A program made the translations under genes and the position numbers. A stretch of DNA of 63,927 bases, filler included, from Craspedostauros australis (Eukaryota), in the NCBI GenBank assembly GCA_030167865.1. It is 9 parts of 9 records of this genome, joined end to end, with 100 filler letters (N's around TTAATTAATTAA, not from the genome) between each part and the next. Parts side by side here need not be neighbours in the genome. Positions count along the whole stretch, not along the records: positions 1 to 16,197 come from JALAGF010004536.1; 8 more parts are not named here. One strand, written 5' to 3'. The notes beneath the pieces were generated by a model, which saw only the letters and a list, made by a program, of their open reading frames with translations, was not told the DNA's origin and ran no database searches. This document shows, in pieces, positions 809 through 63,927 of the stretch (its first letter is position 1; each line of letters opens with the position of its first letter).

Positions 809-1570
809 ATGCTGAATGCTACGAATGAACAACTCATTGATGCTGTCTGGGCAGGTGACTTGTCAGGGTTGAAGGAATGGAAGAAGCAGAACGAGACACA
901 GAATGAAAGAGTTAATGTCAACAAGGCCATAGGCTGCATTGGCAACACTCCCCTTCATGAGGCATGCATGTACGGCAAGCTGGAGTGTGTGAAGTACCTC
1001 ATCGAATCATGTGGGGCGAACATCAACTGCAAAAACCACTATGGTCGCACTCCCCTTCATTGGGCATGCTGGAACGGCAACCTGGAGTGTGTGAAGTACC
1101 TCATCGAATCATGTGAGGCGAACATCACGTGTAAAAACTACGATGGTTCCACTCCCCTTCATTGGGCATGCTCCAAGGGCCACCTGGAGTGTGTGAAGTA
1201 CTTCGTCAAATCATGTGGGGCTGACATCAACTGCAAAAACAACGATGGTCTCACTCCCCTTCATGAGGCATGCTACAATGGCGAGCTGGGATGTATGAAG
1301 TACCTCATCGAATCGTCTGGGGCTGACATCAACTGCGAAGACAACAATGGTGACACCCCCCTCCATCGGGCACGCAGCCGTGGCGACCTGGAGTGTGTGA
1401 AGTACCTCATCGAATCAGCCAATGCCGATACCGACATCCAAAACAACAACAACAAAACACCCCTCGATTTGATCAATTCATTCCGGTACACCGAATTCAA
1501 GAGATTGATCATGAGACGTCCCAGTCACCGCAACCCCCAACTGTACCAACGCTTACAACAAAACAAGTAA
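809..1570 (+). CDS. Ankyrin-repeat protein (~5 repeats)
   Basis: Repeated GxTPLHxACxxGxLECVKYL motif with a 102-bp DNA period. The track start at 356 lies inside repeat A, so ATG 809 (MLNATNEQ) is the likelier start. Confidence 0.85.
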   Translation: MLNATNEQLIDAVWAGDLSGLKEWKKQNETQNERVNVNKAIGCIGNTPLHEACMYGKLECVKYLIESCGANINCKNHYGRTPLHWACWNGNLECVKYLIESCEANITCKNYDGSTPLHWACSKGHLECVKYFVKSCGADINCKNNDGLTPLHEACYNGELGCMKYLIESSGADINCEDNNGDTPLHRARSRGDLECVKYLIESANADTDIQNNNNKTPLDLINSFRYTEFKRLIMRRPSHRNPQLYQRLQQNK

Positions 1571-1683: not shown

Positions 1684-2032
1684 ATGAACGCAAACACAGT
1701 ATCCACAAGAGGACCAGCATCAGCATTGGAGAAGACCGGCTCACATCCTTCCAACCGAGAACAGGGCAGGCACATCTTCTTGTGTGGACAGGGCGACGAG
1801 CAGCAACCAATCAAGGCAAACTCCGAAGTCCTCATGATCACCGTCCTATCCATTGAGACATTGATCGACAAGGAATCCAACATCAGCACGTGAAGGAGGG
1901 CACCGAAGATGGCGTGGCCCCTATGTAAGTAACTGTCCCTCTTCCCAACCTTCAACCAAAACACATCCGATACATTTACAACGGCTGATCCTTATTTCCA
2001 ACGAGTTTGGCTTCTGGCACCTCAGGCTTGTT
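1684..2032 (+). pseudogene. 5' half of a BTB/POZ (SPOP-like) gene disrupted by a LINE
   Basis: BTB-like start (HIFLCG..DEQQPIKANSEVL), stop at 1891, then RLILISNEFGFWHLRLV at the junction, which reads on into LEAELTRKHL at 10827 across the TSD. Confidence 0.6.
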
Positions 2033-2151
2033 AATAATAATAATAATAATAATAACTCAAGGATTACATTAGGAATGTGCTCTGTAGGCTTTACCCTCGC
2101 CTCCACTGGCCCCGTGGGACCAAGCTTCGAACGAGCCGTCGAATACCTCAA

Positions 2152-5100
2152 TCATGTCAGGCCTAGCCAGCTACTCATAAGCCGCCTTTCGTTCTGCATG
2201 GTGCGTGCCCGTCGCCGGGCCGTCACCTTGGTTTGAACCTCCTGCACGTTGAGTATCCATTGCTGCATTTGCAGCTCTGTTGCGTACTCCATCTGATACC
2301 CCTCATGGAGGAGTACCACTTCGGACTCCGTCATATCCTGGCTTACGCCGCTGGCCATCCTCCTCACCTGCCTCCTAAGATCCGCAAGTGCAGGGTGCTG
2401 ATCGGCGTCGTGTACTTTCTCATTGCGCGCCCGCCACACGCCCCATGGAACCTTCCAGATCCATCGTACCACCTCTTTCATCCACGCAAGATCATCAGGG
2501 AATCTGCATTCATGTTGCTCCATCCATTGGGCTTGTTGCTTTCGCCAGTCCTTGTGCATGAAACCCAACATCAGCGGGTACCAGCCGACACCTTTCTGGA
2601 TGCCAGACGCCTCTTGACGATGCCTCTTGACGACGCCTCTTGACGACGCCTCCACTTGACCAGACCGATGCGCATGTTGGCCACTAGCCTGGGCGCCGTA
2701 CCAATGGACACCATTCTGTCAATCAGCTCTTCTGTCGCAGTACTCCACGCGGTCTCGTGCTCTTTGCACGGTAGGACATGCCGCGTAGTTTCAGTAGCCC
2801 CACAGAACGCACACCGCTCGCTTTCCTGCTGGCCCATTTGCTTCATTTTCCGGCCCTCTCCGACAAATCCGGACGACCACTTGGTTACGAATTTCGCCAC
2901 ATCGCGATTCTTCTTGGCACCTCGTGCACCTTGGTATCCCTCCCAGTCCACACTGCGAGCAGTCTCCATGTTCCACTCAAATTTCTTGGCCCAATAAGCC
3001 AAGGTGGCTGTGGCTTGGAGAGTTTTGTACACTTCTTGCTGCCCTACGTGAGAATAATGCTCCCCATTGACGACGACAGTCCACCGGTTTGTCACCGACC
3101 GCCACCGTCGCACTCGTCGTCGGGAAGCAGACGTCGCCCAGACGGCTTTGGCGCACTTGTCGCATTCAACGTTCAGTTTCTCGAGCATGGAAAGACTCTT
3201 GCCCGTGCTATCTTGGTGCCCCCGTACCCACTCCCATTTCAAGTTGGCTCGGATGCGCCCTCGTAGTCGATGTATCTCCACAAGAATGTCCCAATCCCGT
3301 TGTCCGGGACGTACGAAGTCCTCTTGGGCTTGTTGAAGGGCCTGGGACCCGTCCAGGGCCAATGTGATTGAGCATCCTTCGTCCAAGCCTGGAACCATAC
3401 CCAACATCTCGAGTGAGGCCCATATGCCTGCCAGTTCGCTCCGATAGGAGCTATGAACTGAGGCTGGTCCTGGCACAAAAGTGTGGCACGCCACGTGTCG
3501 CTGCGTGACTTCGTCGAACATGATAGAACATGAAGTGCCGCGCGCCGACTTGAACGACCTGTCACTCACCAGCAGTAGCGTGTGATTTCTCGCCGCTACC
3601 AGCATTTGATCCCAGGTAGCATCCCCACCCAGGTCTTCCACCGGATCGTACGGTTGCTCGGACTGCTCGGACTCTCGGTCGAGGCTAGTGCGTCCATTCC
3701 AGGAAATCCTGCGCTCCGTAGCCGCCACTACTACTCGATGTATGTGAGTGGGAAGCGAACCCACCGTCCCTCGCAGCCGATATGATGCCGACCGCGTCCG
3801 GCCTTGCCTGATGGGCACGAACACTCGTATCGGGCTGGCATGCGGGTCGTAGATCTCGTTCGATAGCGCCGATTTTCACCACTGCCACGTTCCGTCGTTC
3901 TTGTGCCATTTCCCAAGAGTTGTTTGGAGCAACCGGCCTCGGTAGCAGAGACTACTGCACCACCTTCGCCACTCCTTCCACCACCCACTTGGAAGATTTT
4001 CCGGACGGCATGCCCATGGACGCACTTGAGTCAGGGCGCCCTGACCTTCCATGACGCCAATTGCCAGCGACGTTCCCGCTGCATCCACAATGTCCGACAG
4101 TCTGGAAACCCCGAGCTTCATCCTGCACATGTTCAGGTGATATAACTTCGCACCCTTCACACCGTCGCAGACCCACTGGGTCATGAGGAACTTGTCCCCT
4201 TCGCGTTGTAGCTCTGAAGCCTTCGTGGTCTCCACTATGTTCACTCCCGTGTCTTGCAGCTGCCTCCACAGGCCTTTTACCCAGCAGGGAGTTACACAGT
4301 GGTGGAGTTTCTCATACGGATGATCGAACAAAGAGCCGCCGATCCCCAGTTCCGCTTTGACTGCTTGAATCGAACATCGCAGCATCCGACCCGTGGGCGT
4401 GTCCCCATGGACTTCATCAAACACCAGCTGAATCTGTTGAATCAGTTGCCGGTGCACCGGGTTGGGTACCCCTAGCCCGCCGAGCGAGATAGGAGCGTAG
4501 ACCAGATCTCTTGGAAATGTTCTTGAACACCCCATCATCGGCAATGCTGCAAGCAGTGCAGGCGCCATGATCCTTCTCCATTGGGCTGCAGTGAGCTGAG
4601 TGATCCCCATCACGTATTCGATCGACTTGATGAAGCGTAAAGTAAGGGCACACCTCGCATCTTCTGGGGATAGCTGAGACCTTCGCATTTTCCCGGCGAA
4701 GTCCTTGGCTTTCGCCCTGAGCGTCTGTACCTGTTTCTCCTCGTTCTCATCGAACGACAGGAACACCCCGAGCGTGAATAGTGGCTGGCCCAAGGGTCGG
4801 CGAGGTATCGCGCGACGTGCACCGTCCCCGTCGACAACGACGATCTCTTCTTCCAGGTCCCCGTCTGTCCACTGCCAATGGCCGTCTTCAAACCGAGGGC
4901 TCAGAGACCACCACGCGGATTTGTTGGGGACAATGGCGCCGCCTGTGACGCGTAACAGCCCGCTCCAGTCTTGGACCATACTTGCGAACTGTTCCGCCGA
5001 TACCCTCATATCGCCTCCCAGCATAACCAGGTCCGTATCGTCGACAAACGCAGACCTGAGGACATCAAAGCTTCCGTTGCCACTTAGATAAGCGACTGTC

Positions 5101-7658
5101 TGTTTGTGTCCCCTTTGTTCCATAGCCTTGAACATGACCGAGCTGATGACTGCCCAAATGGCCGGGCCTGCACCGTTGCCCTGTCCAATGCCGTGCATAC
5201 TGCAGTCGTGCCCACTGCCGTACGACCGTTTCGACACTCCAAAAGCCGTACTGATGCAATGTTGAGCGTCGCGGAGCGTACGGAACATACACCTCGTCGC
5301 CGACGGATTCGCCCCTGCAGCCATCATCACGGTCGCCGCGAAATTGGGAACAATCCGATCATAACACGACTTCGCGTCGTTCGAACAGAACCAGATGGGC
5401 ACCTTCTTCTGTTTGCTGACATCGATACTCACTCTCTTGTTGAACGCAGCACTGATTGCTGACCGACCTTTTCTGCTACCAAACTGGAACTCTGAGAGCC
5501 ACCGCCGTTTTTCTGCTGTGACCATCATCTGTCTCCCCAGGCGCTTGTTGTTGAGATTAAACTGTGCGTCCATTAGTTGGATGGTCCGCATTTTCTCAAT
5601 GTTAAAGACTTGCGCCTTCTTCAGGATCTCCACATCGGTAACGCACTGCCATTCACGTGGTGAGTGGCCGGTCTGATACGGTATCTCACATAGGGCCATG
5701 TCGACTTCCGCGAGAACTGCGTTGGCTGCCGCCGCCTTGTAGTGGCCGAAGTGTGGGTTACTGGGCTCGGAGTTGGTGAGCTCTGTCTGCTTCTTCCACG
5801 CTTTCACGTGCTCTTCGACTGTATGCTCGTCAATTTCGCACTCCACGGGTTCAAGGACCTGCATAAGCTGCTGCCAGAGAGGATGATCAAATGTATGGGG
5901 GTGTCTGCCTGCTTGAAGGAGCTCCTGTGCGGTCTGCCGACGCCAAATTTTGTCCATCGTCCTCCTTCCCTGTCCCGACATGCACGGTGTATCTTTTGCT
6001 TGCGAAAACCGTTGTTTATTCTCCACTATGCATGCATCCACTATGTCACCTTGTTTGGTACATTCATGGACCACTCCATCTGCGTCCGTGTAGAGCACTT
6101 TGGTGGTCATCGCTTTCCCTTTACCGAAGACAGTTCGAAGCCTCACCGCTTGCTCTCTTTGCCGCTCCCGATTCAGGAGAGTTTTGATAGCTGTCTCATA
6201 ATCCTGTTCACAACTGTCGTGACGTTGCCGTGCCAGTGTGACGAGGTGTTCCTGTCGTGCCTTCCAGTGCTCCTTCCTGATTTCGTAGTAGGCCTGGTAC
6301 GCTTCGGATTGTGCTGCTGTCGCTTCTTCCAGGGACGCGGCCGCTGGACATCCCGACTGGGCCCTCAACCGTTTCCGCAGTGACGAGCTGGTCTTCACGC
6401 CTTTCCAGTATTTGACTTCGATGCTCCAATACCTCACTTGGTTACGCGCGTGTTGCACTTCCGGAGACCATGACACTTCTCCCATGGCTAGCTTTCTGCT
6501 CTTTTTCTCTGCGAACTTCCGGATTTGGTACACCTGCGTAAGCAGACCGTCGTAGGCCCTTCGCTGTGCCGCGTTGATCTCCCATCCTTGCGCCTTCGCC
6601 TTTTTGAACAGGTTCATGGCACGTTGGTGTATTCGGTGTTTCCCGTACTCTCCAAGGATTGCATCGTTGTATTTTTGGACTACTTTTGGATTGCTGAGGA
6701 CCAGTCGCCTTGGCTGAGAAGACATCACTCGTTGCACACCAGCTCCTAAGATCTGGCTGAACCCGAGATCAATCCACACCGCTCGATGGTCTGACGGGAT
6801 AGCGTCGCCGAACGCCGTGTACCCTGCCCGGATCACCTCCAGTCCTTCCGAAATGTAGATCGCGTCGATAAGGGTATTCGTTCGGTTCCGTTGCTGTGTT
6901 GATCGCCGTGCTTCGTCTCCGACTCGATCAGAGACCGCGTTTTTCAACCCTACTGCTTTTAATGCGTGAGCGGTCTGTCCGTGATCTGTGTCTTCGTTCA
7001 GGTCAACGCCGACCACAATCGCGTCCCCGTCTTCCTTCCATCGCCGCACTTGGTCTTGTAGATCCTTGATCCACGCTTCATGGGGATCCTCTTGCCTTCC
7101 TTGGGTAGTGAGTACTCGCACCTGCTGGCTCCACACTGTGGGGTCACCTTCTGTGGATTTGCATGGCCTGTATGCCGCCACCACTCTCACAGTCTTGTTT
7201 CTCTTACCCTCGATCTTGCACCAGGACCATCTCCCCATGCCGCTGTCGTCGACTCCATATTGGAACGCTCGCGCCGCCATTTGTTCTGTAAGAACGACTC
7301 CGGTTCCTCCGTACTGTCGTGGCTCTCGCCCAAGCTCGTGGACGTTGTAGGAGAACACGTGTTTGGAACGCTTAACCTTGCCCCGCACACGTTCTTCCCA
7401 TTGATCTCTTGGACTGATATGGTCCCACCTCACGTTGGTCTCCGCAAGTGTAAGAACATCGAGTTTTGACCTTTGGATGAAGTCCATGATTTCGTCATTC
7501 TTTTGCTGATACGCGTAGAGCGGGATCTGGGCTGCATTCTGGAAAACCACTCTGACTTCTTCGTTGGTCTTCGACTCCATGACGTTGCCGCAAGCATTGT
7601 TTAGTCTACTTGCTTCCTCCTCTTCTTCTGCCGGATCGCCGGCTGCCGTTGGACTCAT
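2152..7658 (-). pseudogene. LINE ORF2: AP endonuclease, reverse transcriptase, RNase H, C-terminal Cys/His motif
   Basis: APE motifs (VFQNA, LAETN, GVDLN, IDAI, SDHRAV); RT motifs (NDAKSCYD, GIGQGNGAGP, FVDDT); RNase H motifs (SYRSELAG, WVRGHQD, NVECD); CAFC..H..C. In-frame TGA at 3876-3878 (the 2571..3824 ORF is the same frame) and a frameshift from a 13-bp tandem repeat near 2606-2650. Confidence 0.9.
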
Positions 7659-10045
7659 GCTGACTGTATCTCAGCTCCTTCTCGGGGCTGTCGTTTGCTC
7701 TGAGTAACTGGCCTTGCACTGATGTGCTGGGGATTTTGTCTGTGCAATACCCCGCTTGTTGTTGCCGTGTCTGTTGTTATTGTTGTTGTCACCGCTGTTG
7801 CTGTTCTTTTCGTAGTTGTTGTTGCTGTTGTTGTTCTTGTTCTGATTATTGTTATTGTTGTTGTCTTGTGTAATTGCCGTCTTGATTGATGCTGCTGTCG
7901 CTAGCTTCGAGTTTATCCGCTTTTCTCGTCGATGCTTTATCTGTGTGTGTATCCGTCACTTGTCGTATATTTCTCTCTTTCGTTGACCCGGCGTTCCGGT
8001 GTAATTGCTATGGCTGTGGCTGTCGCGGTTCCTACCGCTACTCGCTTGTGGAGGTCTCGTTCGCCCTTGTCCTTCTTCTTTTTATTAACTCTTGTTGTCC
8101 TGCCCGAATCCTGCGGAGTAGCCGCTTACGCAGTTGGTCCTATGGCGTTCTTGGCGATTACGCTTGCACTGTGGCCTCTTCGCCACCGTCGGATTTGTCG
8201 GAGCTTGTGTCCATGTTGACGATCTTGTTGTCGGCCGGCTCATCATCTGTGACCGACCTGTTGCTGCTCGAGCTGTCCTCTTCTTCGTCGTCCCCTTCTG
8301 TCTCTGCGATGGTTTCAGGATGGTCCACGTCGAAGTCCGTCTTGGCCCACGGGTCCGACGCGAAAGCGCCCGGGTTATTGGCCTTGTTGGAGGCCGCATT
8401 AGTGATAGAGTACGCGATGTGGCTGGCCTGTTGGGCCGGTGAGGCTGTCGCGAATGTACCCACTGTGTAGTTGTCCCCGTTCTGCGTCTTCGGGTTGGAT
8501 GTCAATTCCACTTCGAACTGCAGCAGCGGAACCGGCTTCATATTGCCGTGTTCGTCCATGTACCCTTCCCATCCCATTTCGGCTGGGGTCATACCCATCG
8601 CCTCTTTTTCGTCCAGATTCAGGAACTGGGGGCCGGCTTGCACCATCTGCCCCATTTCTTGCTCTTCTCTGCTGAGGACCAGGCCGGACTCCCAATCCAC
8701 ATCGCAGTGCTCGTTCTGCGCCCACGCATGCAGGGTAAACCACCCTTGGCACCTGTAGTCCAATTTCTTGTAACAGAAAAATGGGAGCTTCGAAATGAGC
8801 TCGTGTGCCTCAACTCTCCTCTTTGGATGGAACACAAAGTGAGTCTGGGTCCAGTCACTCCTGTCGGTGTCGACCGATACAAACAGGGAGTAATCCGGGT
8901 CCTCGAAGGACCTGAGATTCATCACGACCTCTCGCAGTGTCAATCTCCAAATGGGAATCTTGACATTCAACTGCAGAATTGAGTGGACCCCTTGTACCTT
9001 CATCACCTTTTCGAACTCCTGTTGGTGGGCCGCCATTTTGCTCAGGTTTGCGAGTTCCGACGGAGGATGTTCGAATCTGGTGTCCAAGGCGTCAGGCATG
9101 AACCTCATTTGTTTTCCCAGCAAGCGGATTGTGTCGGAACAGTTGTTGAAAAGGTCCTTCATGGCCACTCTGCACATGAGGGTCTTCGATTCTCTGCACA
9201 TCACATGTGTGGCTCTGGGCCGGTTTCGAAAGTTGCTGGTGTCCTTTGGTTGGTTCCTCTTGCTGACCAATTGGATTTCCTTTGTACGGAGCTGGACCGC
9301 AAATTTTCCTTTCACAGCCTCCGTTTCGTTGATGGCTTCTGTTAAGTCGTTGTTGTTGGTGGTACTGTGACTACCAAACAGCCATCCTGCTGTCACAATG
9401 TTGTGCTCTTGGATATCCAACTTGGAGAAGAATATCGCTGATGCTCGTAGCGTACCGTTGTCTTCAAACACTTCGGTGTCTGCTTTGTGGGCTACCCAGA
9501 TCCTCGTGTATGTGTTGAAGCCTGTGCGGGCATAAAGACTCTCAACGAACTGCTTGATTGTCTCATGGGATGTCCACGGGACGTCGGATGCCGTCCATGG
9601 TTTCATGTCTTTGCTTCTTCTCCATGCCACAATCTGGGCCTTCGAATCAGCTCTGAAAATGAAGGCTCTGACTTCGTTGAGGCTCAAGATGACCTGGTTG
9701 ATGAGCAGGTCATTGGACTCTCTTGCCATGGGCAGGCGGACGTCAAAGAAGGTTTTGTTGAAATCGCTCAGCACGTTGTTCACGCTGGGTAGATCTGCCT
9801 GTCGCGCTGACTTCCTTGGGAATGCCACAACCTTGCGTTTGGGTTTGCAAGGCTTCTTCTTCTTCTTCGGATTTGGTGAGGTAGTAGTCTCCTCTTCGTC
9901 CTCGAACTTGATGCCTTTGGATTGCATGAAGACGACTCGTGCTGCTACCCACGTGGAAGTTTCGTGGGTGGCCTTGATCCTTCCGGCGTCCCACATATTG
10001 GGGAAGATGTTGGGGGTCGCGACCACCTGTATCATGAGCTCCACC

Positions 10046-10251
10046 TATTAGAGCACTATCGAAAAATCACAAGGGGAGAGCAAAAGCAAAGTACCATGCC
10101 GGGATTCGAACCCGGAACCTCAGTTAGAATTACTGGTGCTCTACCGTTGAGCTACAGGCGATGCGATTGCTGATCCGAACACAAGTGAAATTTATAGATA
10201 GTGGGGGCTACGGGAGTAACGTACTTAGCACTATTCGATTTTGTGCTGATA
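10046..10251 (-). mobile_element. 206-bp tRNA-bearing insertion (solo-LTR/TRIM-like), complete copy
   Basis: Flanked by CCACC at 10041-10045 and 10252-10256; ends TATTAG...CTGATA; a second partial copy at 33532-33613 shares the same terminus. Confidence 0.85.
10091..10164 (-). ncRNA. tRNA-like Pol III unit (not a canonical tRNA)
   Basis: A-box TAGCTCAACGG, D-stem GCTC/GAGC, stem CAGT/ACTG with a 7-nt loop, T-arm CCGGG-TTCGAAT-CCCGG, upstream TATAAA (10191-10196), downstream TTTT. The acceptor stem pairs poorly and U33 is absent. Confidence 0.7.
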
Positions 10252-10808
10252 CCACCAGATTGATGTTTTGTTCAGGCTGAAGCTTGTTGTTGTAAGAAAG
10301 TTGAAATGCCTCCATCCACTCCTCCAGCAATTTTCCAATGTCTCCTTCCTTTGTGTTCTCCTTGATGTGCGCAACAGTTTCGTCGAGTGCGCCCTCCGCC
10401 CCTGTGGCAGCAGTGAAGGGTTGTGCGTCGCGTGTCAACAAATTGCGTTCGCGAAGGATGTCACCCCAAGATTTCTCATGGTCGTGACTCCAGATCCAAC
10501 GGCTGTTGCCCGTCGTGGTGTTGTTTTTTGCCGCTTTCTTCCGTGCGCCTTCCCTGGCCTGTTTTCGGCCCCCTCCTCCTCGTCCTCCCTCGCCATTATC
10601 ACCATTGTGACGGACTCCTCTCCCTTGTCGTCCTGATGCCCTCTGATGAGTGCGGGGTTGCCTTGGGTTGGCTTTGCCAGAGCCGTTTGCTGCGTTGGTG
10701 CGCGCCGTTGTCAGGTTTTTTGTCCTGGTAGTGATTGTACACGTTCTACGTAAAATTTTCAGTACTGGTCCTACATACGTCTTCTCGGTAGAAGGGTCAC
10801 GCGGACTG

Positions 10809-11207
10809 TGGCACCTCAAGCTTGTTCTTGAAGCAGAGTTGACCCGCAAGCATCTCACAGAGGACACCATGATAGATGTGTTGATATTCGCCCATCAGCA
10901 CAACTGCGTGGTGTTGAAGGATATGGCGATGAGAATGGCAGCTGAAAGTGAGAAGGATACGTTCACTCATCTAGATTTAAGCAAACTAATTCTACAACCT
11001 CAACTGATGGGAGGCATTCATGTCCTCCGCAATGGGGGAGCGGAGAGTGATGGTACTGATGATGAGTACAGCCACATGTCCATGATGGACCTGTACAAGG
11101 TTGTAGATGAGGACAAGGGTACAGAACAAATGGATTCATACATGGATCGGGCGACATTGGTGGACTTCGTCCGCTCAATGAGAACCAGCTCTATGAGAGC
11201 CAATTGA
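10809..11207 (+). pseudogene. 3' half of the disrupted BTB gene (BTB end plus BACK-like helices)
   Basis: WHLKLVLEAELTRKHLTEDTMIDVLIFAHQHNCVVLKDMA matches the SPOP-type LK..CE..L / ..VL..A..HNC..LK pattern. Confidence 0.7.
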
Positions 11208-12707: not shown

Positions 12708-15700
12708 GCGCGTTTGGTGGGGCACTCGTCTGTCTGCCATCCGTATTTCAATCAACCAATGACACGCACACGCACTCACAACCAACATCACGAATGCGTT
12801 GTCTTCGTGCAATGCAACTCTGTTCGACGATGACGATGGCGATGGCAACCACTCCAATGACGCCGCATCCCTTCACAATTGGTACCACCACCAACAACAC
12901 AAGCACAAACAAACAGACAAGATGATGAGACATCGACATCCAAGAGGATCTGTGGGAAGGCTCGCCAGTTGCTCCATGCCTTGACCCACCCGTCGTACGA
13001 CTATGAGTATTGCTATGGAACCTTCCATGAGTACGATCTACTCTGGGAGTTGCCACAGCAAAGCGTCCAGCCTGATACTCTGTTCGAGCCTTCATGAGGT
13101 CATGAGGTCATGACGATTGAAGTTTCTGGAAGAGGACGGTTTCAGACTGATAGCAGAGAAGCAAACGGAGACCAAGCAACCGCAACAGACTGACACGAAA
13201 TCGAAGGCGAGCAAGCCCACAAGCGTCGCCAGAGAGGCCAAAGCAGCTGCAAATCAGGTCGTCGTGCGAGTGTCAGCACAGATACACCAAGCAGTGCCAA
13301 TAGAAGGACAGCCAAAGATGCGAAAGCTTCAGCTGTGAAACTATCATGTGCGAAGAGTCTGGACATGCTCAACATGCAAGATCACGACATGTCATTCAGC
13401 TCCCTTGATCCCAGCAAGTTCATCAACAACAAATCCATACAGACGCCAAACACCCCAGGTGGACTCAGCTTCGCCACAACCCCAGCACTCGGCGCGACCC
13501 GCGAACGGAGCAGTCAAGACAAGACGAAGCTTGCCCAGAGTCGGAGATACAGGCCAAGGCCACAAACGAATTCCAACAGAACGACCAGCAGCGCCGAATC
13601 GAGGAGCAAGAGTTTGGAATTCTCGAAGGACGGACGCAACATGCCAGTCACACCAGACACATCAGACATACTAGGCGCGATGAGTACAGCCAGCACCCCC
13701 GCTCTATCTCGAGTTGCGACAACGAAAAAGTCTCGCAGCAAGAGCCCGGAGTCACGCTCCAATCTGCCAAGTCTCCAAGACGACGACGATGGCAGCGTCG
13801 ACGTTGCGACAAGTGCTGCTGCAACGAACGGTGGGAGAAGCTCTGTGGCCCCTGTCACGCCTGGAGGTCGGAGCGCGGCATCTACACCAGCCCCGTTCAG
13901 CCACATACATGAATAGAGACAACAGTCTTTGTCGCCGAACAAGTGCAGGTCAACGTTGGCAAGCATCCTCAAGGCCAAACGATCATCATTACGTGAAGTG
14001 TCGTCAACCAATCCTGCCAAATCGAAGCAACGACCATCTCTCGAATGTCGACCATCGCAATTGGCCGATCTTGCCTTGACTGAAGTATCCGCAAAGGCGC
14101 CATCGCCGTCGCCACCGTCATCATCATCACAGTCCAAATCCAAACTCAATCTTCAACAGTTCGAACGCGAACACGAACACAGAGGTGTCTCGGCCACACA
14201 CCTCAAGCCCCATCCAGTCCTGGAGCCTTGAGTTTGGGAATCGAATTGCAATCGAGCAAGAAGGAACGAGGGGCTCCTTCTCACAACAGATCTGCATGCA
14301 GTTCGTTGCGCCCAAGTGAAGACTCAAAGCAACGACGTTCACGCGGACGAAGCACGGGTGCTCTGGGCGATGAGAAGCGATCAAGGAAAGGAAAGGATCT
14401 CCAAGGTGCTTGGCAATGGGCCCGACATCACCACTCCAGCAAAACATGAGGTGTGTCATCACCATTGATATTACCATCGAGATCACCGTCGCCACGGCAT
14501 CGGCGGAGAAGCGCACAGCACACCAGTGGCAAGCTGCATTCAACATCGTCAAGATCAAAGAGTGTGGAGCATTCGACATCATTGTGTCATCGTCGTGACG
14601 GAGCAATTCACACTTGCTCCTCTGGAAGAAGCCGCTGCTCGTCATCGGCGCAGAGTCGTCGAAGCCTGTCCGATCGCGATCACACAAGACTACGCAACTA
14701 TCGATGGACTCATCGCCATCATCACGGCGACAACGAACATCTGGCAGTTCGGATGATATGAACGCAGCCTCACGTTCACGCCAATCCAACTCAAATGCGC
14801 ACTCCACCGGTACTGGTTTGCACCAACGCAAGGGCTCACCTTCACGAACGCATGCCCGAAGAAGTTCGCGAAGACCAAATCAACGTGGCCATAGCCAATC
14901 GACACCATGTGGCGAAGATCAGCGAAGGAAGTCCTCTGATGAACGATCACCATCGGCGCGACCACGAAGCAGATCAAGAGGATATCGAAATTGCAGTGTC
15001 GAACAGCACAGCGATGAGAGAGATGAAGATGGACGGCATTGCAAACAACAACATGGCCAACAACAGCATGGCAACAGACGTTCGTCATCACGCGGGGCCC
15101 TTCAATCAAATTGTTGGGACAAAGCAGATCATCGACTCGCGATGCTGTCTACCATGAGAAGTTGTCCGGCACAAAGCCACTGCAACTCACACCAAAGAAA
15201 GCGGTCAGGAACAAGAGCGCGTCTCAGTGCCGCCATCCCTTGATGAATGGTACCAAAACTCCCACCCTGTGATGCATCACGACACGATGGGATGGAATGA
15301 GATGGATGGGCCGCTCCGTACTCGTATCATACTCATAGAGGTATGGTAGCTCCACATCCCTGTATGTAATACACCTACGAATAGACTGTAATGCTCTACG
15401 TATGTTTGGAACAGTACCGCATGTACTATATCTGCTTGTGCAATAGAACGCTGTGATGAAGGCACCGGATGTTTCAAGAGATTGAAGGGCTGGATACTGC
15501 TCCCATGCTGCCTCCGCCTTGTCTACGACTAGTCTGGTCCGCTCTCTGCGGTACATACCCACACAGGGATGTTGCCGATGTCATTCACGAGCAGATTGGA
15601 CGTCCGTGGTTCCATCCGCACTCTGCCATCAGCATCGTTGTTGGTTCGTTGCTCAGACAAAGGACGCATGGCAGCAGCAGTATCACAAGCCGTGCGGTCG

Positions 15701-15889
15701 TCACCATGCCACCGGATTCGCACACAGAGCAATCTCCACTCCAAGTTACACTACCAAGCAGATTGGAAGCAACAGTGCCAATGCCAGCCGATCCAAGTTG
15801 CTGGAAGAGGCGATCTACGAAGAGCACATGGCGAACAAGGCAGAGAGAAATGGTGAGAAGCCGCGAGGAGCATGGTTGTTGCACGGTTC
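12708..15889 (+). repeat. 3.2-kb duplicated segment (copy 1) with a broken Ser/Thr/Arg-rich ORF
   Basis: Colinear with the reverse complement of 42217-45398; paralogous ORFs such as 13335..13916 vs 44183..44971 and 14614..15243 vs 42910..43638. Confidence 0.9.
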
Positions 15890-16196: not shown

Positions 16197-16297
16197 ANNN
16201 NNNNNNNNNNNNNNNNNNNNNNNNNNNNNNNNNNNNNNNNNTTAATTAATTAANNNNNNNNNNNNNNNNNNNNNNNNNNNNNNNNNNNNNNNNNNNN
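16197..16297. other. Artificial contig linker N-TTAATTAATTAA-N (also near 22725, 27842, 33105, 40649, 45443, 51963, 57805)
   Basis: The same palindromic six-frame-stop 12-mer embedded in N runs. Confidence 0.97.
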
Positions 16298-27897: not shown

Positions 27898-27979
27898 GGA
27901 ACGGAAAAGGTAAGAAAAGTGGAGATTTCTGATTGGTCGACGGGTGTCGCTATTGTTAGAGATTTAGCGTGCGCTAATA
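27898..27979 (+). mobile_element. End of repeat family B (CTGATTGG...TTAGCGTGCGCTAATA)
   Basis: Nearly identical to 33450-33531 with the same end point; it truncates the mariner transposase. Confidence 0.75.
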
Positions 27980-33160: not shown

Positions 33161-33531
33161 GTCAATGAACAAAAACACCGCGATAGCCCGTGTTGTAAAT
33201 TACGTCTTCTCACGATGTTGCTAGTAGTACGATCACACGATTGACCGTATTCACTTGAGAAGGTCAGGGCAAGATTCGCACGTGTCACACCCAAGATCCA
33301 AGTCTGTCCTGATTGGGCAGATTGGCTCATCTTGGCAAGAAATCAATTTCCACGACATTTTTGGATCTGTGATTGAGGGAAAANNNNNNNNNNNNNNNNN
33401 NNNNNNNNNNNNNNNNNNNNNNNNNNNNNNTCGACCAAAATTTCCGTTCGGAACGGAAAAGGTAAGAAAAGTGAAGATTTCTGATTGGTCGACGGGTGTC
33501 GCTATTGTTAGAGATTTAGCGTGCGCTAATA
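33161..33531 (+). mobile_element. Repeat family B terminal region (gapped)
   Basis: Matches 27898-27979 and, more divergently and inverted, 34440-34820. Confidence 0.75.
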
Positions 33532-33613
33532 CTAACTGAGGTTCCGGGTTCGAATCCCGGCAAGGTACTTTGCTTTTGCTCTCCCCTCGTGATTTTTCGA
33601 TAGTGGTCTAATA
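33532..33613 (+). mobile_element. Partial second copy of the tRNA-bearing 206-bp element
   Basis: 82 bp matching the reverse complement of 10046-10127 with three substitutions; ends at the same CTAATA terminus; 5' part cut off by repeat B. Confidence 0.85.
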
Positions 33614-34439: not shown

Positions 34440-34820
34440 TACTAGTGCAATGCTATATTCCTAACAATAGTGACACCCATCAACCAATCAGAAATCTTCA
34501 CAATTTTCACATTTCCGTTCGAAACGGGAATTTTGGTCAAAATTCCATTGTGTCAAATTTGTGTCACACTTCGTGTCGCAAGAACCATTTTTCCTCCATT
34601 CACAGATTTCGGATGTCACGGAAACAATTTCTTGCCCATCCTGAATTCTGAGAAGGTACCTCCATCCAATCAGGACAGACTCCGGTCTTGGGTCCGATAA
34701 ATATGGCACCGTCCCCGACCTTCTCAAGTGAATACGATCAATCGTGTCATCGTTATACTTGCAACATCGTGAGGAGTTGCACCCCTACAACATGGCGTAT
34801 CGCGGTGTTTGTTTTCTGAC
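34440..34820 (-). mobile_element. Diverged repeat family B terminal region, inverted
   Basis: Reverse complement reads ...TTCTGATTGGTTGATGGGTGTCACTATTGTTAG...CACTAGTA and shares CTTCTCAAGTGAATACG and ATCGCGGTGTTT blocks with 33161-33383. Confidence 0.7.
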
Positions 34821-36446
34821 TTTTGCAAATCTGAACCCACATGTTGGCAAGTTCCGCTCACGGTGACCTACGATCGTGGAAGATGGTGTTGGTTGATAGT
34901 CGTTCGTTTGCTATTTCATTACTTGGCTACTCCGATCCTCTCAGTGTACGCCCGTTCTCTTGCCCGATGCTCTCGATGCTTCAATCTGTTTCGTAGATTC
35001 GGTCTCCGACTATGAGTCGGTACGCGAGATGCTCTCTCGCTCCTCTCTGTATTCTCTCTCTCTCAATATCGTGTACTCATGCTACACGATACTCCGTGTT
35101 TGACGCATACTCCACGTTCGACACTTTGTTCATTCACTACTGGTTCTTACTCCATGAGTACTTACCATTTGAAGTTCATCTCCCGTATCCATGATCTTGA
35201 TGCCCTTCAGTCATCCAATCTTTGTCTCCTGCTCTGACTTGGAGACAGATGTCGACGTGGTGACACGATGACATCCTGTCGACATCAGTAGGCGTCCTTC
35301 TGCTCTCCAGATGTCACATTCCATTGGTGATGCAGCAGTCTGTCAGATGATATCGTTATCTGAGGTTTAGTTGGGAAGTACCTCGAGATTCTCTTGGTAC
35401 CATTGATGGATGGACGGACGATCTTCTAATTCTCTCAGAAATCGTCGATTGCAAATTTCCTACAGAAATTCTGCTCATTTTCGTGTGTTCCATTTCCACT
35501 GTAATTCTGACGAATCACAGTATATTATTGACACGAATGTAGTTATACCGTCCAAGTGCGTATGAGAGAATAACGGGTGAACGATGCACATATACACGTA
35601 CATCTCGACATATACTCACATGTACATCTCGACACCCACACAGTAACACGCAGATTTGTCATGTTGTCTCCACGTTGTATTCCATCTGCAATCGCATGAG
35701 ACCTGCAAGTTGCCTCTCATGCTCACGGTTCCAAGATCTCAATCTTTGGAGCTCGACAGTCTGCATCTACTCATTCAAAGAACACGCTACTCAAAAAATC
35801 ATCCTAAACCAACTACGAATTGATCACTCTACGTTTTCGGTGCGGTACCCTACGCATCTTTGATTTCGTTCTAACACAGGGTATCGCTGTGTTCCCGGAT
35901 GCTTCCCTCTGTGTTCATCATACCTTGCTCATGCATCTTCATATGTTTTTCTTCATGTCCTCGTCTCGACATCTCATCGTTTGTATCTGCGTGCTTGTAT
36001 CCATCTACATTTGCATGGTATAAATCTGCAGTCCTGCATGCTTGCCTGTCACATGTTTTGATCCTCAATCCTGTGGCACCTCACCTTATGATTGGTGTCA
36101 CCCTTGGTGATGTTCCAAACCTGCAGCTGTTCTTGTCCACAAGAGGGGTGCGTGCTGCTTCCCAGATGGGGTGCATCACTTGCCCACGGCCCTGCTGTGG
36201 TTCTGGCTGACGTCGCCGTCTGTGTAGTTGCCATGGTTTGGTGTTGCAACCTCCTGTTCTGCTGTTGGCAAGGTTCTTGTACTATCCAAGGACAGGCTAC
36301 CCTTTCTTCTTGGTAGGACTGAGATCAGTCACGTTTGTCTTTGTTCGTGGGTGTGATGAATAGTAGTCAAAGGTATGCTGAATAGTGTTCAAAGGTGTGA
36401 TGAATAATGATAGGAGGTGCGGCAATCATGGGTATCTTGACAAAAG

Positions 36447-42216: not shown

Positions 42217-45200
42217 GAACCGTGCAGCAACCATGCTCCTCACGGCTTCTCACCATTTCTCTCTGCCTTGTTCGCCATGGGCTCTTCGTAGATCGTCTCT
42301 TCCAGCAACTTGGATCGACTGGCATTGGCACTGTCGCTTTGAATCTGCTTGGCAGTGTGACTTGGAGTGGAGTGCTCTGTGTGTGAATCCGGCGGCATGG
42401 TGACAACCGCACAGCTTGTGATAATGCTGCTGCCATGCGTCCATTGTCTGCGCAACGAACCAACAACGATGCTGATGGCGGAGTGCGGATGGAACCACAG
42501 ATGTCCAATCTGCTTGTGAATGACATTGGCAACACCCCTGCGTGCGTATGTATCGCAGAGAGCAGACCAGACTAGTCGTAGACAAGGTGGAGGCAGCGTG
42601 GGAGCAGTGTCCAGCCCTTCAATCTCTAGAGACGTCCGGTGACTTCATCACAGCGTTCTATTGCATCAGCAGATATAGTGCATGCGGTACTGTTCCAAAC
42701 ATACGTAGAGAAGTGCAGTTTATTCGTAGGTGTATTACATACAGGGATGTGGATCTACCATACCTCTATGAGTATGATACGAGTACGGAGCGGCCCCTCC
42801 ATCTCATTCCATCCCATCGTGTCGTGATGCATCACGGGGTGGGAGTTTTGGTACCATTCATCAAGGGATGGTGGCACTGAGACGCGCTCTTTCTCCTGAC
42901 CACTTTCTTTTATGTGAGTTGCAGTGGTTTTGTGCCAGACAGCTTCTCATGGTAGACAGCATCGCGAGTTGACGATCTGCTTCGTCCACGGCGATTTGAT
43001 TGAAGGGCCCCGCGTGATGATGAACGTTTGTTGGCATGTTGTTGTTCGCCATGCCATCCATTCTCATCTCGCTCATTGCTGTGCTGTTCGACACTGTAAT
43101 TTCGATATCCTCTTGATCTGCTTCGTGGTCGCGCCGATGGTGATCGTTCATGGGAGGACTTCCTTCGCTGATCTTCGGCACGTGGTATCAATTGGCTACG
43201 GCCACGTTGATTTGGCCTTTGCGAACTTCTTCGGTCGTGCTTTCGGGAAGGTGAGCCCTTGCGCCATTGCAAACCAGTACCGGTGGAGTGCGCATTTGAG
43301 TTGGCTTCGCGTGAACGTGAGGCTGCGTTCGCGTCATCCGAACTGCCAGATGTTCCTTGTCGCCGTGATGATGGCGATGAGTCCATCGATACTTGCGCAG
43401 TTCTTCTGCGGCCGCGGTCGGACGGGCTTCGACGACTCCACGCTGATGACGAGCAGCGGCTTCTTCCAGAGGAGGAAGTGTGAATTGCTCCGTCACGACG
43501 ATGGCGCAATGATGTCGAATGCTCCACACTCTTTGATCTTGACAATGTTGAATGCAGCTTGCCACTGGTGTGCTGTGCGCTTCTCCGCCAATGCCGTGGC
43601 GACGGTGATCTCGATGGTAATATCAATGGTGATGACACACTTCATGTTTTGCTGGAGTGGTGACGTCGGGGCCCATTGCCAAGCACCTTGGAGATCCTTT
43701 CCTTCATCTCATCGCGCAGAGCACCCGTGCTTCGTCCACATGAACGTCGTTGCTTTGGGTCTTCGCTTGGGCGCAACGAACTGCATGCAGATCTGTTGCG
43801 AGAAGGAGCCCCTCGTTCCTTCTTGCTCGATTGCAATTCGATTCCCAAACTCAAGGCTCCAGGACTGGATGGGGCTTGGGGTTGTGGCCGAGACACCTCC
43901 ATGTTCGTGGTTGCGTTCGAACTGTTGAAGATTGAGTTTGGATTTGGACTGTGATGATGATGACGGTGGCGACGGCGATGATGATGGCGACGATGATGGT
44001 GCCTTTGCGGATGCTTCAGTCAAGGCAAGATCGGCAAATTGCGATGGTCGACATTCGAGAGATGGTCGCTGCTTCGATTTGGCAGGATTGATCGACGCCA
44101 CTTCACGTAATGATGATCGTTTGACCTTGAGGATGCTTGCCAACATCGACCTGCGCTTGTTCAACGACCAAGACTGCTGTCTCTATTCATGTGTGCGGGC
44201 TGAAGGGGCTGGTGTAGATGCCGCGCTCCGACCTTCAGGCGTGACAGGGGCCGCGGAGCTTCTCCCATCGCTCGTTGCAGCAGCACTTGGCGCAACGTCG
44301 ACGCTGTCATCGTCGTGGAGACTTGGCAGATTGGAGAGTGACTCCAGGCTCTTGCTGCGTATCTTTTTCGTTGTTGCAACTCGAGGTAGAGCCGGGGTGC
44401 TGGCTGTACTCATCGCGCCTGGTGTGTCTGTTGTGTATGTTGTGCCTGGCATGTGGTGTCCGTCCTTCGAGAATTCCAAACTCTTGTTCCTCGATTTGTC
44501 GCTACTGGTCGTTCCGTTGGAATTCGTTCTTGGCCTTGGCCTGCTTCTCCGACTCTGGGCAAGCTTCGTCTTGTCTTGACTGCTCCGTTCGCGGGTTGCG
44601 CCAAGTGCTGGGGCTGTGGCGAAGCTGAGTCCACCTGGGGTGTTTGGCGTCTGTATGGATTCATTGTTGTTGAACTTGCTGGGATCAAGGTAGCTGAATG
44701 ACATCTCGTGAGCTTGCATGTTGAGCATGTCCAGACTCTTCGCACGTGATGGTTTCACAGCTGAAGCTTTCGCATCTTTCGCTGTACTTCTATTGGCACT
44801 GCTTGGTGTATCTGTGCTGACACTGGCACGACAACCTGATTTTGCAGCTGCTTTGGCCTCTTTTGCAACGCTGGTGGGCTTGCTCGCCTTCGATTTCGTG
44901 TCGGCCTGTTGCGGTTGCTTGGTCTCCGTTTGTTTCTCTGCTATCAGTCTGACACCGTCCTCTTCCAGCAACTTCGATCGTCATGATCACATGACCGCAC
45001 GGGCTGGACGAAGGTTCGAACAGAGTATCTATAAGGCTGGACGCTTTGCTGTGACAACTCCCAGAGTAGATCGTACTCATGGAAGGTTCCATAGTAATAC
45101 TCATAGTCGTACGACGAGTGGATCAAGGTGCGGAGCAACTGGCGAGCCTTCCCACAGTTCCTCTTGGATGTCGATGACTCATCATCTTGTCTGATTGTTT

Positions 45201-45398
45201 GTGTTGGTGTTTGCGTCGGTGGTACCAATTGTGAAGGGATACGGCACTGTTGGAGGGGTTGCCATCGCCATCATCATCGTCAAACAGAGTTGCATTGCGC
45301 GAAGACAACAGCGAGGTGATGTTCGTTGTGAGTGTTTGTGTGCGTCACTGGTTGAATGAACAACGGATGGCAGACAGACGAGTACTCAACAAACGCGC
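42217..45398 (-). repeat. 3.2-kb duplicated segment (copy 2, inverted)
   Basis: Reverse-complement match to 12708-15889; runs into a gap at 45399. Confidence 0.9.
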
Positions 45399-56446: not shown

Positions 56447-56584
<138 letters not shown>

Positions 56585-61488: not shown

Positions 61489-63927
61489 ATGGTCTTCATC
61501 CTCCCCCAACTCGTTGTGATGTTCGCCTCACCATTGCGCAACCACAACCATCACGTCTGGGCATCACTATCCACGGCCTCACCGTCTCTCCTTCCGCTCA
61601 AGTCGACCCCTGGTGATGCACCCCCGCCAACCATCACCAACCAGAATCTCCTGCGCGCCGCAGAACGAGGAGATGTGGACACCCTCACCGCGTGGAGGAC
61701 ATCATTTCCACAAACCTCCATCGACACGATCAAGGACGACCGTGACAAGACTGCACTCCACCTCGCATGCTCCAACGGCCAGCTTGACGTGATCAAGCAG
61801 TTGATGGAGTCATGTGGAGCAAACATCAATGCCCAATCAATGAATGGAGAGACTGCGCTACACTATGCATGCGCACAGGGCAACGTCGACGTTGTGGAAT
61901 ACCTAGCCGGGGCGCATGCTGCAGATGTCAACCTCCAGGACAACTTCGGCAAGGTGGCACTCCACGACGCATGCACCGAGGGGCATATGGCCATCGTGAA
62001 GACTCTGATCAAGGTGGATTCTGCAAGCGCTCTCGTGCAAGATGAGAAGGGTGAGAATGCCCTCCATGCCGCGTGTCTTCATGGACACTTGGATGTTGTG
62101 GAGTACCTCGTTGGATCATGCGGAGTCGACATCAATGTGCAAGATGATTTCGGCAATACTGCGATCCACGATGTGTGTCTGAAGGGTCATCTTGAAGTTT
62201 TGAAGTATGTGATGGAGAGTCGCACTGTGTCCATCAACGTTCAGAACAATGACGGCGATACCGCACTTCGTGTTGCTTACAGAAATGGTCATTTGGATGT
62301 TGCAGAGTACCTGGTGAAGTCGTGCAAGGCAGATATTCATGTTGAGAATGACACTGGTGGCGCGGCTCTTCAGTCTGCATATTCCAAAGGTCATCTGGAT
62401 GTTGTGAGATGGTTGGTGGAGTCAGGTCAGGTGGACGTCAATGCCAAAGACCAAAATGGTGACACTGCCCTTCACCGCGCAAGTGCTGGAGGCCATCTGG
62501 ATGTGGTGGAGTATTTGTTGAAGTCAGATGACCTGAAGGTGGATGGTAACGCCAAGAACAAGGCTGGCAACACTGCCCTTCACTGCGCAAGTGTTGGAGG
62601 TCACCTGGATTTGGTGAAGCATTTGTTGGACTCAGGCAACGCCAACATCGATGTCAGCGCCGAGAACAAGACTGGCAACACTGCACTCCATCTCGCAAGT
62701 GGCGATGACCATCTCGATGTTGTGAAGCAGCTGGTTGAATCCGGTAAGGCCAATATCAACGCTGAGAACGACGAGTGCGAGACTCCACTCCACAAGGCAT
62801 CGTTCAACAACCACTTCGATGTTGTCAAGTATCTCATCGGAACACCAAACATATATCCCAACGCCCGAGACGAGGATGGCAACACTGCGCTCCATCTGGC
62901 AAGTGGCGATGGCCATCTCGATGTTGTGAAGCAGCTGGTTGAATCCGGTAAGGCCAATATCAATGCTGAGAATCACGAGTGTGAGACTCCACTCCACAAG
63001 GCATCGTTCAACAACCACTTCGATGTTGTCAAGTATCTCATCGGAACACCCAATGCTGATTTGAACGTAAAAGACGAGGATGGCAACACCGTGCTCCATC
63101 TCGCAAGTGGCGATGGCCATCTCGATGTTGTGAAGCAGCTGGCTGAATCCGGTAAGGCCAATATCAACGCTGAGAACGACGAACACGAGACTCCACTCTA
63201 CAAGGCATATTGCCACAACCACTTCGATGTTGCCAAGTATCTCATCGGAACACCAAGCATACATCCCAACGCGCAAGACGAGGATGGCAACACCGTGCTC
63301 CATCTCGCAAGTGGCGATGGCCATCTCGATGTTGTGAAGCAGCTGGCTGAATCCGGTAAGGCCAATATCAACGCTGAGAATGACGAACACGAGACTCCAC
63401 TCTACAAGGCATATTGCCACAACCACTTCGATGTTGCCAAGTATCTCATCGGAACACCAAACATATATCCTAACTTCCGACACAAGGATGGCAACACCGT
63501 GCTCCATCTCGCAAGTGGCGATGGCCATCTCGATGTTGTGAAGCAGCTGGTTGAATCCGGTAAGGCCAATATCAACGCTGTGAACGACACATACGAGACT
63601 CCACTCTACAAGGCATATCACAACAATCATTTCGACATTTTCAAGTATCTGGTCGCAGCACCAAATGCTGATTTGAACGTAAAAGACGAGAAAGGCAAAA
63701 CCATCCTCCATCGCGCAAGCGCTAATGGTCATCTCGACGTTGTGAAGTCGTTGGTTGAACAAGGCAAGGTAGATGTCAACATCAAAACCAGCAATCATGG
63801 CAACACAGCAATGCACTTTGCGAGCATCAATGGCAGATTGGAAGTCATGAAGTATTTGGTGGAAGTCTGCAACGCAAAAATCAACATTCGGAACAAGTAT
63901 GGCGGAACTGCACTTCGGTTGGCAAGT
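61489..63927 (+). CDS. Long ankyrin-repeat protein (3'-partial; missing from the ORF track because it has no stop in the window)
   Basis: Open frame from ATG 61489 to the window end with about 20 G.T.LH.A...GH.DVVK.L repeats. Confidence 0.9.
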   Translation, partial: MVFILPQLVVMFASPLRNHNHHVWASLSTASPSLLPLKSTPGDAPPPTITNQNLLRAAERGDVDTLTAWRTSFPQTSIDTIKDDRDKTALHLACSNGQLDVIKQLMESCGANINAQSMNGETALHYACAQGNVDVVEYLAGAHAADVNLQDNFGKVALHDACTEGHMAIVKTLIKVDSASALVQDEKGENALHAACLHGHLDVVEYLVGSCGVDINVQDDFGNTAIHDVCLKGHLEVLKYVMESRTVSINVQNNDGDTALRVAYRNGHLDVAEYLVKSCKADIHVENDTGGAALQSAYSKGHLDVVRWLVESGQVDVNAKDQNGDTALHRASAGGHLDVVEYLLKSDDLKVDGNAKNKAGNTALHCASVGGHLDLVKHLLDSGNANIDVSAENKTGNTALHLASGDDHLDVVKQLVESGKANINAENDECETPLHKASFNNHFDVVKYLIGTPNIYPNARDEDGNTALHLASGDGHLDVVKQLVESGKANINAENHECETPLHKASFNNHFDVVKYLIGTPNADLNVKDEDGNTVLHLASGDGHLDVVKQLAESGKANINAENDEHETPLYKAYCHNHFDVAKYLIGTPSIHPNAQDEDGNTVLHLASGDGHLDVVKQLAESGKANINAENDEHETPLYKAYCHNHFDVAKYLIGTPNIYPNFRHKDGNTVLHLASGDGHLDVVKQLVESGKANINAVNDTYETPLYKAYHNNHFDIFKYLVAAPNADLNVKDEKGKTILHRASANGHLDVVKSLVEQGKVDVNIKTSNHGNTAMHFASINGRLEVMKYLVEVCNAKINIRNKYGGTALRLAS
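62674..63693 (+). repeat. Five tandem 204-bp units (two ankyrins each)
   Basis: GGCAACAC unit starts at 62674, 62878, 63082, 63286 and 63490. Confidence 0.92.

Follow-up and report, generated by a model that had tools for sequence, protein, structure and literature searches.

A 206-bp insert in the upstream frame of a LINE

The window analysed here is a 63,927-nt (64-kb) stretch of the genome of the diatom Craspedostauros australis (assembly GCA_030167865.1), and our subject is a 206-bp insert in it, element E, which splits an open reading frame (ORF) of a long interspersed nuclear element (LINE) and carries a decayed tRNA-like sequence. On the minus strand, an ORF of 1264 aa (ORF2; 7670..3879, listed as feature 3876..7670) matches the Pfam families Exo_endo_phos (2e-09) and RVT_1 (6.8e-08), the endonuclease and reverse transcriptase of the LINE. 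Because both domains lie in the next minus-strand ORF, we assign the host, on its predicted coding content, to the LINEs with an apurinic/apyrimidinic endonuclease (APE type), and the interrupted frame (8158..10894, minus strand) is its upstream ORF, ORF1. Directly after the ORF2 stop, in another frame, lies an open frame of 434 codons (2574-3875, minus strand) with a Cys/His-rich stretch and no Pfam family; a third ORF is one explanation of it, a C-terminal part severed by a frameshift the other. A (TTA)n run at about 2032-2055 (minus strand) probably marks the 3’ end of the LINE, and E has no such tail. In the Atlas neighbour cluster of the ORF2 protein, the one member with a known phylum belongs to the Bacillariophyta.

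Element E occupies 10046-10251, where it reads TATTAG...CTGATA on the plus strand; we list it on the minus strand, following the sense of its tRNA-like part. The pentamer CCACC stands immediately to its left (10041-10045) and again immediately to its right (10252-10256), neither copy having a strand. Since the bases next to CCACC differ on both sides, the target-site duplication (TSD) is exactly 5 bp long and the boundaries of E fall at 10046 and 10251.

The reading frames of the host fix the same boundaries. One minus-strand frame runs into the insert (10894..10208, 228 codons) and another runs out of it (10044..8158, 628 codons), and their phases can be joined only by a deletion of length 1 mod 3. 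Removing 211 bp, that is E together with one CCACC, yields a single open frame of 842 codons, and no single open frame across E results from removing either 206 bp or the 204 bp that a TA duplication would imply. A duplication of the Tc1/mariner type was therefore ruled out by frame arithmetic. With its boundaries fixed by both the TSD and the restored frame, E is confirmed as a real mobile insert with defined ends. The initial annotation had proposed a 206-bp insert with an exact CCACC duplication, removal of which restores ORF1, and with imperfectly inverted TA..TA ends; the coordinates, the differing neighbour bases, the 842-codon frame and the agreement of TATTAG with TATCAG at five of six positions bear out each of these points.

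ORF1 itself belongs to no Pfam family, its larger piece (8161-10044) had no protein match at E<=1e-5 among 3704 candidates, and tblastn with the restored ORF1 revealed no second copy in the window. No relative of ORF1 was thus found against which the junction could be compared. The LINE copy around E keeps long frames open, and for that reason the family of E may have been active recently.

A tRNA-derived, RNA polymerase III-like unit within the element

The tRNA family of Rfam (RF00005) matches E at 10156..10097 on the minus strand with 35.4 bits (gathering score 29), the sole Rfam tRNA match in the window at E<=0.1. The match begins at position 6 and stops at position 65 of the 71-position model and so leaves out the acceptor stem; the tRNA-derived core (10097..10156) comprises the D, anticodon and T arms. 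Folding the tRNA-like part gave three hairpins and again no acceptor stem, at an energy no better than that of shuffled sequences (z = 0.11). ARAGORN called no tRNA in the window at its default settings and produced spurious calls only at relaxed thresholds, and no isotype was obtained.

Within and around this core, we noted several motifs associated with RNA polymerase III (Pol III) genes, all on the minus strand. The sequences TAGCTCAACGG (10154..10144) and GGTTCGAATCC (10112..10102) fit what we take to be the A-box and B-box consensus, respectively, and the B-box-like sequence is identical in the second copy of E described below. A TATAAA at 10196..10191 lies 30-35 nt upstream of tRNA position 1, as that position is placed by the Rfam alignment. 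Downstream of the tRNA-like part and still inside E (within 10062..10085), a run of four Ts (10085..10082) and a run of five (10066..10062) are possible Pol III terminators. Read in the tRNA sense, E is thus built of a 90-nt leader with the TATA motif, a tRNA relic of about 70 nt and a trailer of about 45 nt with the T runs.

Judged by this layout, E resembles a small Pol III gene along with its flanking DNA and does not have the appearance of a copied Pol III transcript. It carries a decayed copy of a tRNA gene that appears to keep what Pol III needs: the A box, the B box, the upstream TATAAA and the downstream T runs. The initial annotation had placed a tRNA-like part with A and B boxes, a TATAAA about 30 nt upstream, a TTTT downstream and a broken acceptor stem in the middle of the element, and the Rfam score, the fold and the motifs agree with that description throughout. 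The antisense end of the tRNA was considered separately as a PBS-like site (PBS, primer-binding site) and rejected; it has no preceding TGG and is wrongly positioned relative to the ends of E.

The position of the tRNA part also bears on whether E could be an ordinary tRNA-derived short interspersed nuclear element (SINE) that a LINE would have mobilised by target-primed reverse transcription. Such an origin, which we consider very unlikely, would account for a tRNA-derived core with A and B boxes; like the SINE2 group, E is short and non-coding and has a tRNA-derived internal Pol III promoter, it sits in a LINE-bearing region, and target-primed reverse transcription can yield short TSDs. However, the tRNA head of E is not at the 5’ end but 90 nt inside, and a Pol III transcript from an internal promoter could not include the leader or the TATAAA. 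The T4 and T5 runs come before the 3’ end, as internal terminators, and E closes in ...GTGCTCTAATA and lacks a tail, whether A-rich or of simple repeats; it resembles neither the 3’ region of the LINE nor (TTA)n. Two further differences from SINE2 elements are the exact 5-bp length of the one TSD known for E and the nature of the ends, which are inverted and, as described below, shared with another repeat family. The earlier suggestion that E is unlike an ordinary SINE accordingly stands, supported by the 90-nt leader, the missing tail, the internal T runs and the shared terminus.

Recurring ends and a repeat family with the same terminus

From position 16198 onwards, the window consists of small unplaced contigs strung end to end. 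These are joined by linkers of the form N44-TTAATTAATTAA-N44, in which TTAATTAATTAA is a six-frame stop, at 16198, 22681, 27798, 33061, 40605, 45399, 51919 and 57761 (16198-57860 of the window; one every 5-7.5 kb). Because unplaced contigs have been joined in this way, neighbourhood across a linker is meaningless.

A second, partial copy of E lies in this portion. A BLAST search of E against the window gave one further match, at 33527-33613 on the plus strand, which covers positions 120-206 of E at 95.4% identity and stops at the same end base. The copy proper (33532..33613, plus strand) comprises positions 125-206, over which 3 of 82 bases differ from E, counted by eye. Its left limit, at 33531/33532, coincides with the end of a repeat family that we call X, and since the limit is set by the terminus of X, the copy provides no evidence of 5’ truncation; most simply, X would have inserted into this second copy of E. 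The earlier observation that this copy ends at the same base is upheld by BLAST. The interruption by X also removes a point in favour of a SINE, as the supposedly 5’-truncated copy is actually one cut by X.

The contigs of a public run (X1) add another instance; X1 was the one sequencing run listed (share 0.09), and the listing included no RNA data. Letters 1-151 of a 226-letter contig lie on 10102-10252 with two differences, and its other 75 letters match nothing in the window, which indicates a further locus with the same E end. Each end of E has therefore been seen twice, one in the second copy and the other in this contig. Run X1 gave no cover at or below 10032 or at 10354-10781, and its depth was 245.8 in the bin 10033-10139 against 37 in 10140-10246; these depths are not used here as copy number, expression or absence, as the data are contigs only and real tRNAs could match the T-arm. 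Exact-pattern scans with four short stretches of E returned no matches in metagenome, viral and genome contig collections.

The recurrence of the ends speaks directly to a reading in which E is not mobile at all but is filler that break repair copied from a tRNA locus, in which case CCACC would be a microhomology due to chance. The insert does look like a genomic tRNA locus with its flanks. The reading is nevertheless disfavoured because the ends of E recur: the same ends stand at two further loci, where the flanks differ, the duplication measures exactly 5 bp, and the terminal motif is shared with X. We regard filler DNA as barely credible.

Three termini of family X lie in the window, and the flank outside differs from one to the next; one of the three adjoins the fragment of E. 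The first copy (33161..33531, plus strand) contains an N gap and is cut by the start of its contig; its terminus, ...GCGCTAATA, adjoins and interrupts the second copy of E. The 82 bp before that copy (33450-33531) are 98.8% identical to 27898-27979 (plus strand), a second X terminus with another flank beyond it. The third copy, X2, is diverged and inverted, begins at 34440, and is probably a whole unit of about 396 bp (34440..34834, listed on the plus strand, with its right boundary inferred). The pentamer ACCCA stands just before 34440, if the boundary is shifted by one base, and again at 34835, where similarity to the other X copy should end. The unit suggested in this way is about 396 bp long and has a candidate 5-bp TSD, although the right boundary and ACCCA were picked post hoc from 15 five-base matches at five offsets. 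X is non-coding, with a repeated CCAATCAG motif and a small palindrome, CCGTTCGGAACGG. Two of the three X copies lie at contig starts, which suggests that X is a high-copy repeat that breaks assembly.

E and X meet in their termini. On the plus strand, the start of X (TATTAGCGCAC) and the start of E (TATTAGAGCAC), two termini that were defined independently, are alike at 10 of the terminal 11 nt; the other end of E, as its reverse complement, reads TATCAGCAC. All five matches to the pattern TAT[CT]AG.{0,2}CAC in the window are termini of E or X. Beyond the termini, Smith-Waterman alignment of E with X was not significant (211, 145, 234 and 63 of 1000 shuffles reached the respective scores). 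A decayed tRNA core in X, homologous to that of E, had been eyeballed in an alignment and was dropped, its scores being no higher than those of shuffles. In the flanks of 10046, 33613 and 34440, we also noted AGCTCC, 3-4 nt beyond the TATTAG end in the two E copies, and AGCGCC, 6 nt beyond the corresponding end of X2 (GAGCTCCACC / GAGCAGCTCCTGCT / GAGCGCCACCCAG). Such a flank is absent from the remaining two X ends; it was noticed post hoc among five ends and may be a target-site preference.

A terminus common to two otherwise dissimilar families is also what would be seen if E and X were non-autonomous cut-and-paste DNA transposons resembling miniature inverted-repeat transposable elements (MITEs), with 5-bp TSDs, a transposase that binds the shared motif and, in E, a tRNA pseudogene with its flanks as a captured passenger. 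MITE families under one transposase are alike at their termini only, as E and X are. Moreover, the terminal motif occurs again subterminally in E, as a direct repeat of positions 13-25 and 190-200 that was reached by 69 of 5000 random pairs. An apparently whole Pol III gene with flanks is easily carried as DNA and is awkward to carry through an RNA copy, and every end that could be judged belongs to a single unit with neither a PBS nor a polypurine tract (PPT). The terminal inverted repeats (TIRs), however, are weak where about 10 bp or more would be expected: E has 6 nt that agree at five positions (TATTAG vs TATCAG), and of 5000 random pairs, 411 scored as well as the local alignment of its 30-nt ends. 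Inverted ends are absent from X2, whose score was reached by 2730 of 5000 random pairs. We know of no diatom DNA-transposon superfamily with 5-bp TSDs, and piggyBac duplicates TTAA and Harbinger 3 bp. Diatom MITEs and Mutator-like elements (MULEs) resemble E in being short and non-coding with a fixed TSD, but the diatom MULE is described with 9-bp TSDs and TIRs of about 200 bp (bioRxiv 10.1101/2023.01.02.522487), and E has almost no TIR. A transposase was found in none of the 75 window ORFs scanned (see below). We therefore view a MITE-like origin as unlikely, if still a real contender.

Element E as a candidate solo long terminal repeat

The reading we prefer, tentatively and as somewhat short of probable, is that E is the solo long terminal repeat (LTR) of a small non-autonomous LTR retrotransposon of the Helenus type. 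Helenus (TRIMp3) elements, a kind of terminal-repeat retrotransposon in miniature (TRIM), are described as non-autonomous LTR retrotransposons whose LTRs include a stretch resembling a tRNA, its A and B boxes conserved (Kojima 2024, PMC10886601). According to the same source, they occur in fungi, six animal phyla and Selaginella, have TSDs of 5 bp in fungi and the plant and of 4 bp in animals, carry a PBS and a PPT, and are often found as solo LTRs with 5-bp TSDs. E resembles them in its tRNA-derived stretch, which has conserved A and B boxes but is no working tRNA and sits in a short unit of LTR size, and in being a solo unit with a TSD, of the 5-bp length seen in fungal and plant Helenus. 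It differs in that no LTR pair, PBS or PPT was seen for it in the window, in its TA...TA ends, and in a tRNA unit equipped, within the element, with a TATAAA of its own upstream and T runs downstream. These likenesses are drawn from the description of Helenus.

The initial annotation had considered an element of this kind possibly undescribed and had pointed to tRNA-bearing plant analogues under the name Ajax. That name was misapplied: in PMC10886601, Ajax is a 5S rRNA-bearing TRIM of nemerteans with 5-bp TSDs, and the tRNA-bearing TRIMs, already described, are Helenus. E shares with Cassandra and Ajax the relic of a Pol III small-RNA gene in a unit of LTR size, and with Ajax the 5-bp TSD, but theirs is 5S rRNA and that of E is a tRNA; no Rfam match to 5S rRNA occurs in the window, and E matches tRNA only. 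Neither diatoms nor other stramenopiles appear in Table 1 of PMC10886601. Among the 15 of 24 matches listed for Helenus or TRIMp3 in the literature from 2024, PMC10886601 alone concerns these elements, judged by title, four others being transposon or rDNA papers that use the word. If E is of the Helenus type, only its lineage and its TA...TA ends would be new.

Several features of E and X are consistent with LTRs. The exact 5-bp TSD, the frame restored by removal of 211 bp only and the recurrence of both ends fit a solo LTR, as do the very short inverted ends, which are LTR-like and unlike the TIRs of typical MITEs. The sizes of E (206 bp) and of X (about 396 bp), together with the solo state with a TSD, would also suit solo LTRs, and the terminus that E and X share without other significant likeness, along with the candidate 5-bp TSD of X2, is in keeping with LTRs of different elements. 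The ends of E resemble what we take to be the copia-type termini, TGTTAG...CTAACA, from which they depart by G>A at the second base and C>T at the penultimate one. Diatom Copia-like (CoDi) elements would be a likely source of the integrase, and the size range of their LTRs fits E, although the second and penultimate bases of E are A and T in place of G and C. Copia-type LTR elements are by far the main class of transposable element reported in diatoms in Table 2 of PMC5859163 and in PMC2806351.

If E is such an LTR, it would have inserted into ORF1 of the APE/RT LINE as part of a short non-autonomous mobile element, through an enzyme that cuts with a 5-bp stagger and recognises TATTAG(N)GCAC, a short motif at the terminus. 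Recombination between two LTRs would then have left the solo copy. The element would have been mobilised in trans by a Copia-like integrase that accepts TA...TA in place of TG...CA, and that integrase would also serve a related element, with X as its LTR. What the sequence shows is the insertion with its exact TSD, the reproducible ends, the tRNA-derived unit and the terminus in common with X; we infer that E is an LTR moved by an integrase, and likewise its reverse transcription and whatever transcription by Pol III there may be.

Other observations weigh against a solo LTR. The window contains neither a second LTR nor an internal region: one whole and one partial copy of E are present, and they are unpaired. 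By eye, a PBS- or PPT-like tract lies beside none of the five ends in the window (E1, E2 and three X ends), although solo LTRs would lack both anyway. E ends in TA...TA and not in TG...CA, which LTR integrases nearly always need; non-canonical LTR ends are known in plants. Because the T4 and T5 runs precede the end of E, Pol III, if it started in a 5’ LTR, would be expected to terminate ahead of any internal region, and the tRNA unit accordingly looks, from its arrangement, self-contained and not like the driver of a full-length retro-transcript. None of the 75 window ORFs of at least 150 aa carries an LTR-retrotransposon integrase, gag, protease or transposase domain (Pfam). Finally, the right boundary of X2, and with it the second TSD, was chosen after the fact.

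These same observations bring into view an origin in which E was never part of an LTR pair. E would then be an integrase-moved single unit of a kind not yet described, a Pol III gene cassette with att-like TA ends, or else a retro-element of undescribed mechanism. TA...TA ends are at odds with canonical LTRs and with known TIR families alike, the terminators of the self-contained Pol III unit lie inside E, and no paired structure was seen in the window. On the other hand, nothing speaks positively for such a unit, the known classes are not displaced, and the absence of a pair among five ends means little; we consider it distinctly unlikely. A bolder version would make E and X an undescribed diatom group of short elements, moved by an integrase-type enzyme with TA-3’ ends, in which E is a mobile small-RNA gene (promoter, tRNA-like body and terminator) with no LTR pair, neither SINE nor TRIM; this we rate slightly lower again. 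E itself is a real mobile unit of integrase style, probably active in the recent past, with a Pol III-like gene derived from a tRNA.

The remaining features of the window are recorded here in their own right. Most of the 282 contigs of run X1 that lie on the window fall at 10782-11200, beside the 5’ end of the LINE, with 80-99% likeness and many variants, and this region may be a large gene family or another repeat; a plus-strand ORF at 10650-11204 has a weak BACK-domain match (E 0.0048, below the Pfam cut-off). A 3.2-kb repeat is present at 12708-15889 and, inverted, at 42217-45398 (90% identity), with one copy ending at a contig end and no Pfam family in its ORFs. A perfect 6-bp tandem array lies at 56447-56584, and repeats with periods of about 100 and 200 bp occur in ankyrin-repeat ORFs at both ends of the window (946-1417 and 62429-63759). 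The window also contains a match to Pfam DUF7640, and a neighbour cluster (score 0.76) that carries DUF7640 is commonest in the Bacillariophyta.

What E means depends on which origin holds. As a MITE or an unusual SINE, it would be no more than an ordinary repeat. Repeats of Phaeodactylum tricornutum listed in PMC5859163 include a ‘putative SINE’ class of 13 copies and a ‘putative TRIM/LARD’ class (the latter term denoting large retrotransposon derivatives) of 27 copies, entered without description; if our preferred reading of E as a Helenus-type solo LTR is true, E would give annotators a concrete case of what may stand behind such vague classes in diatoms, and a warning that tRNA-like matches in these genomes can be transposon relics. 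Its possible recent activity may make it usable as a marker, or as a tool for studying Pol III units on mobile DNA. A Helenus-type LTR in C. australis would imply an LTR integrase that works on TA...TA ends, and would extend the tRNA-bearing TRIMs from fungi, animals and one lycophyte to the stramenopile algae.

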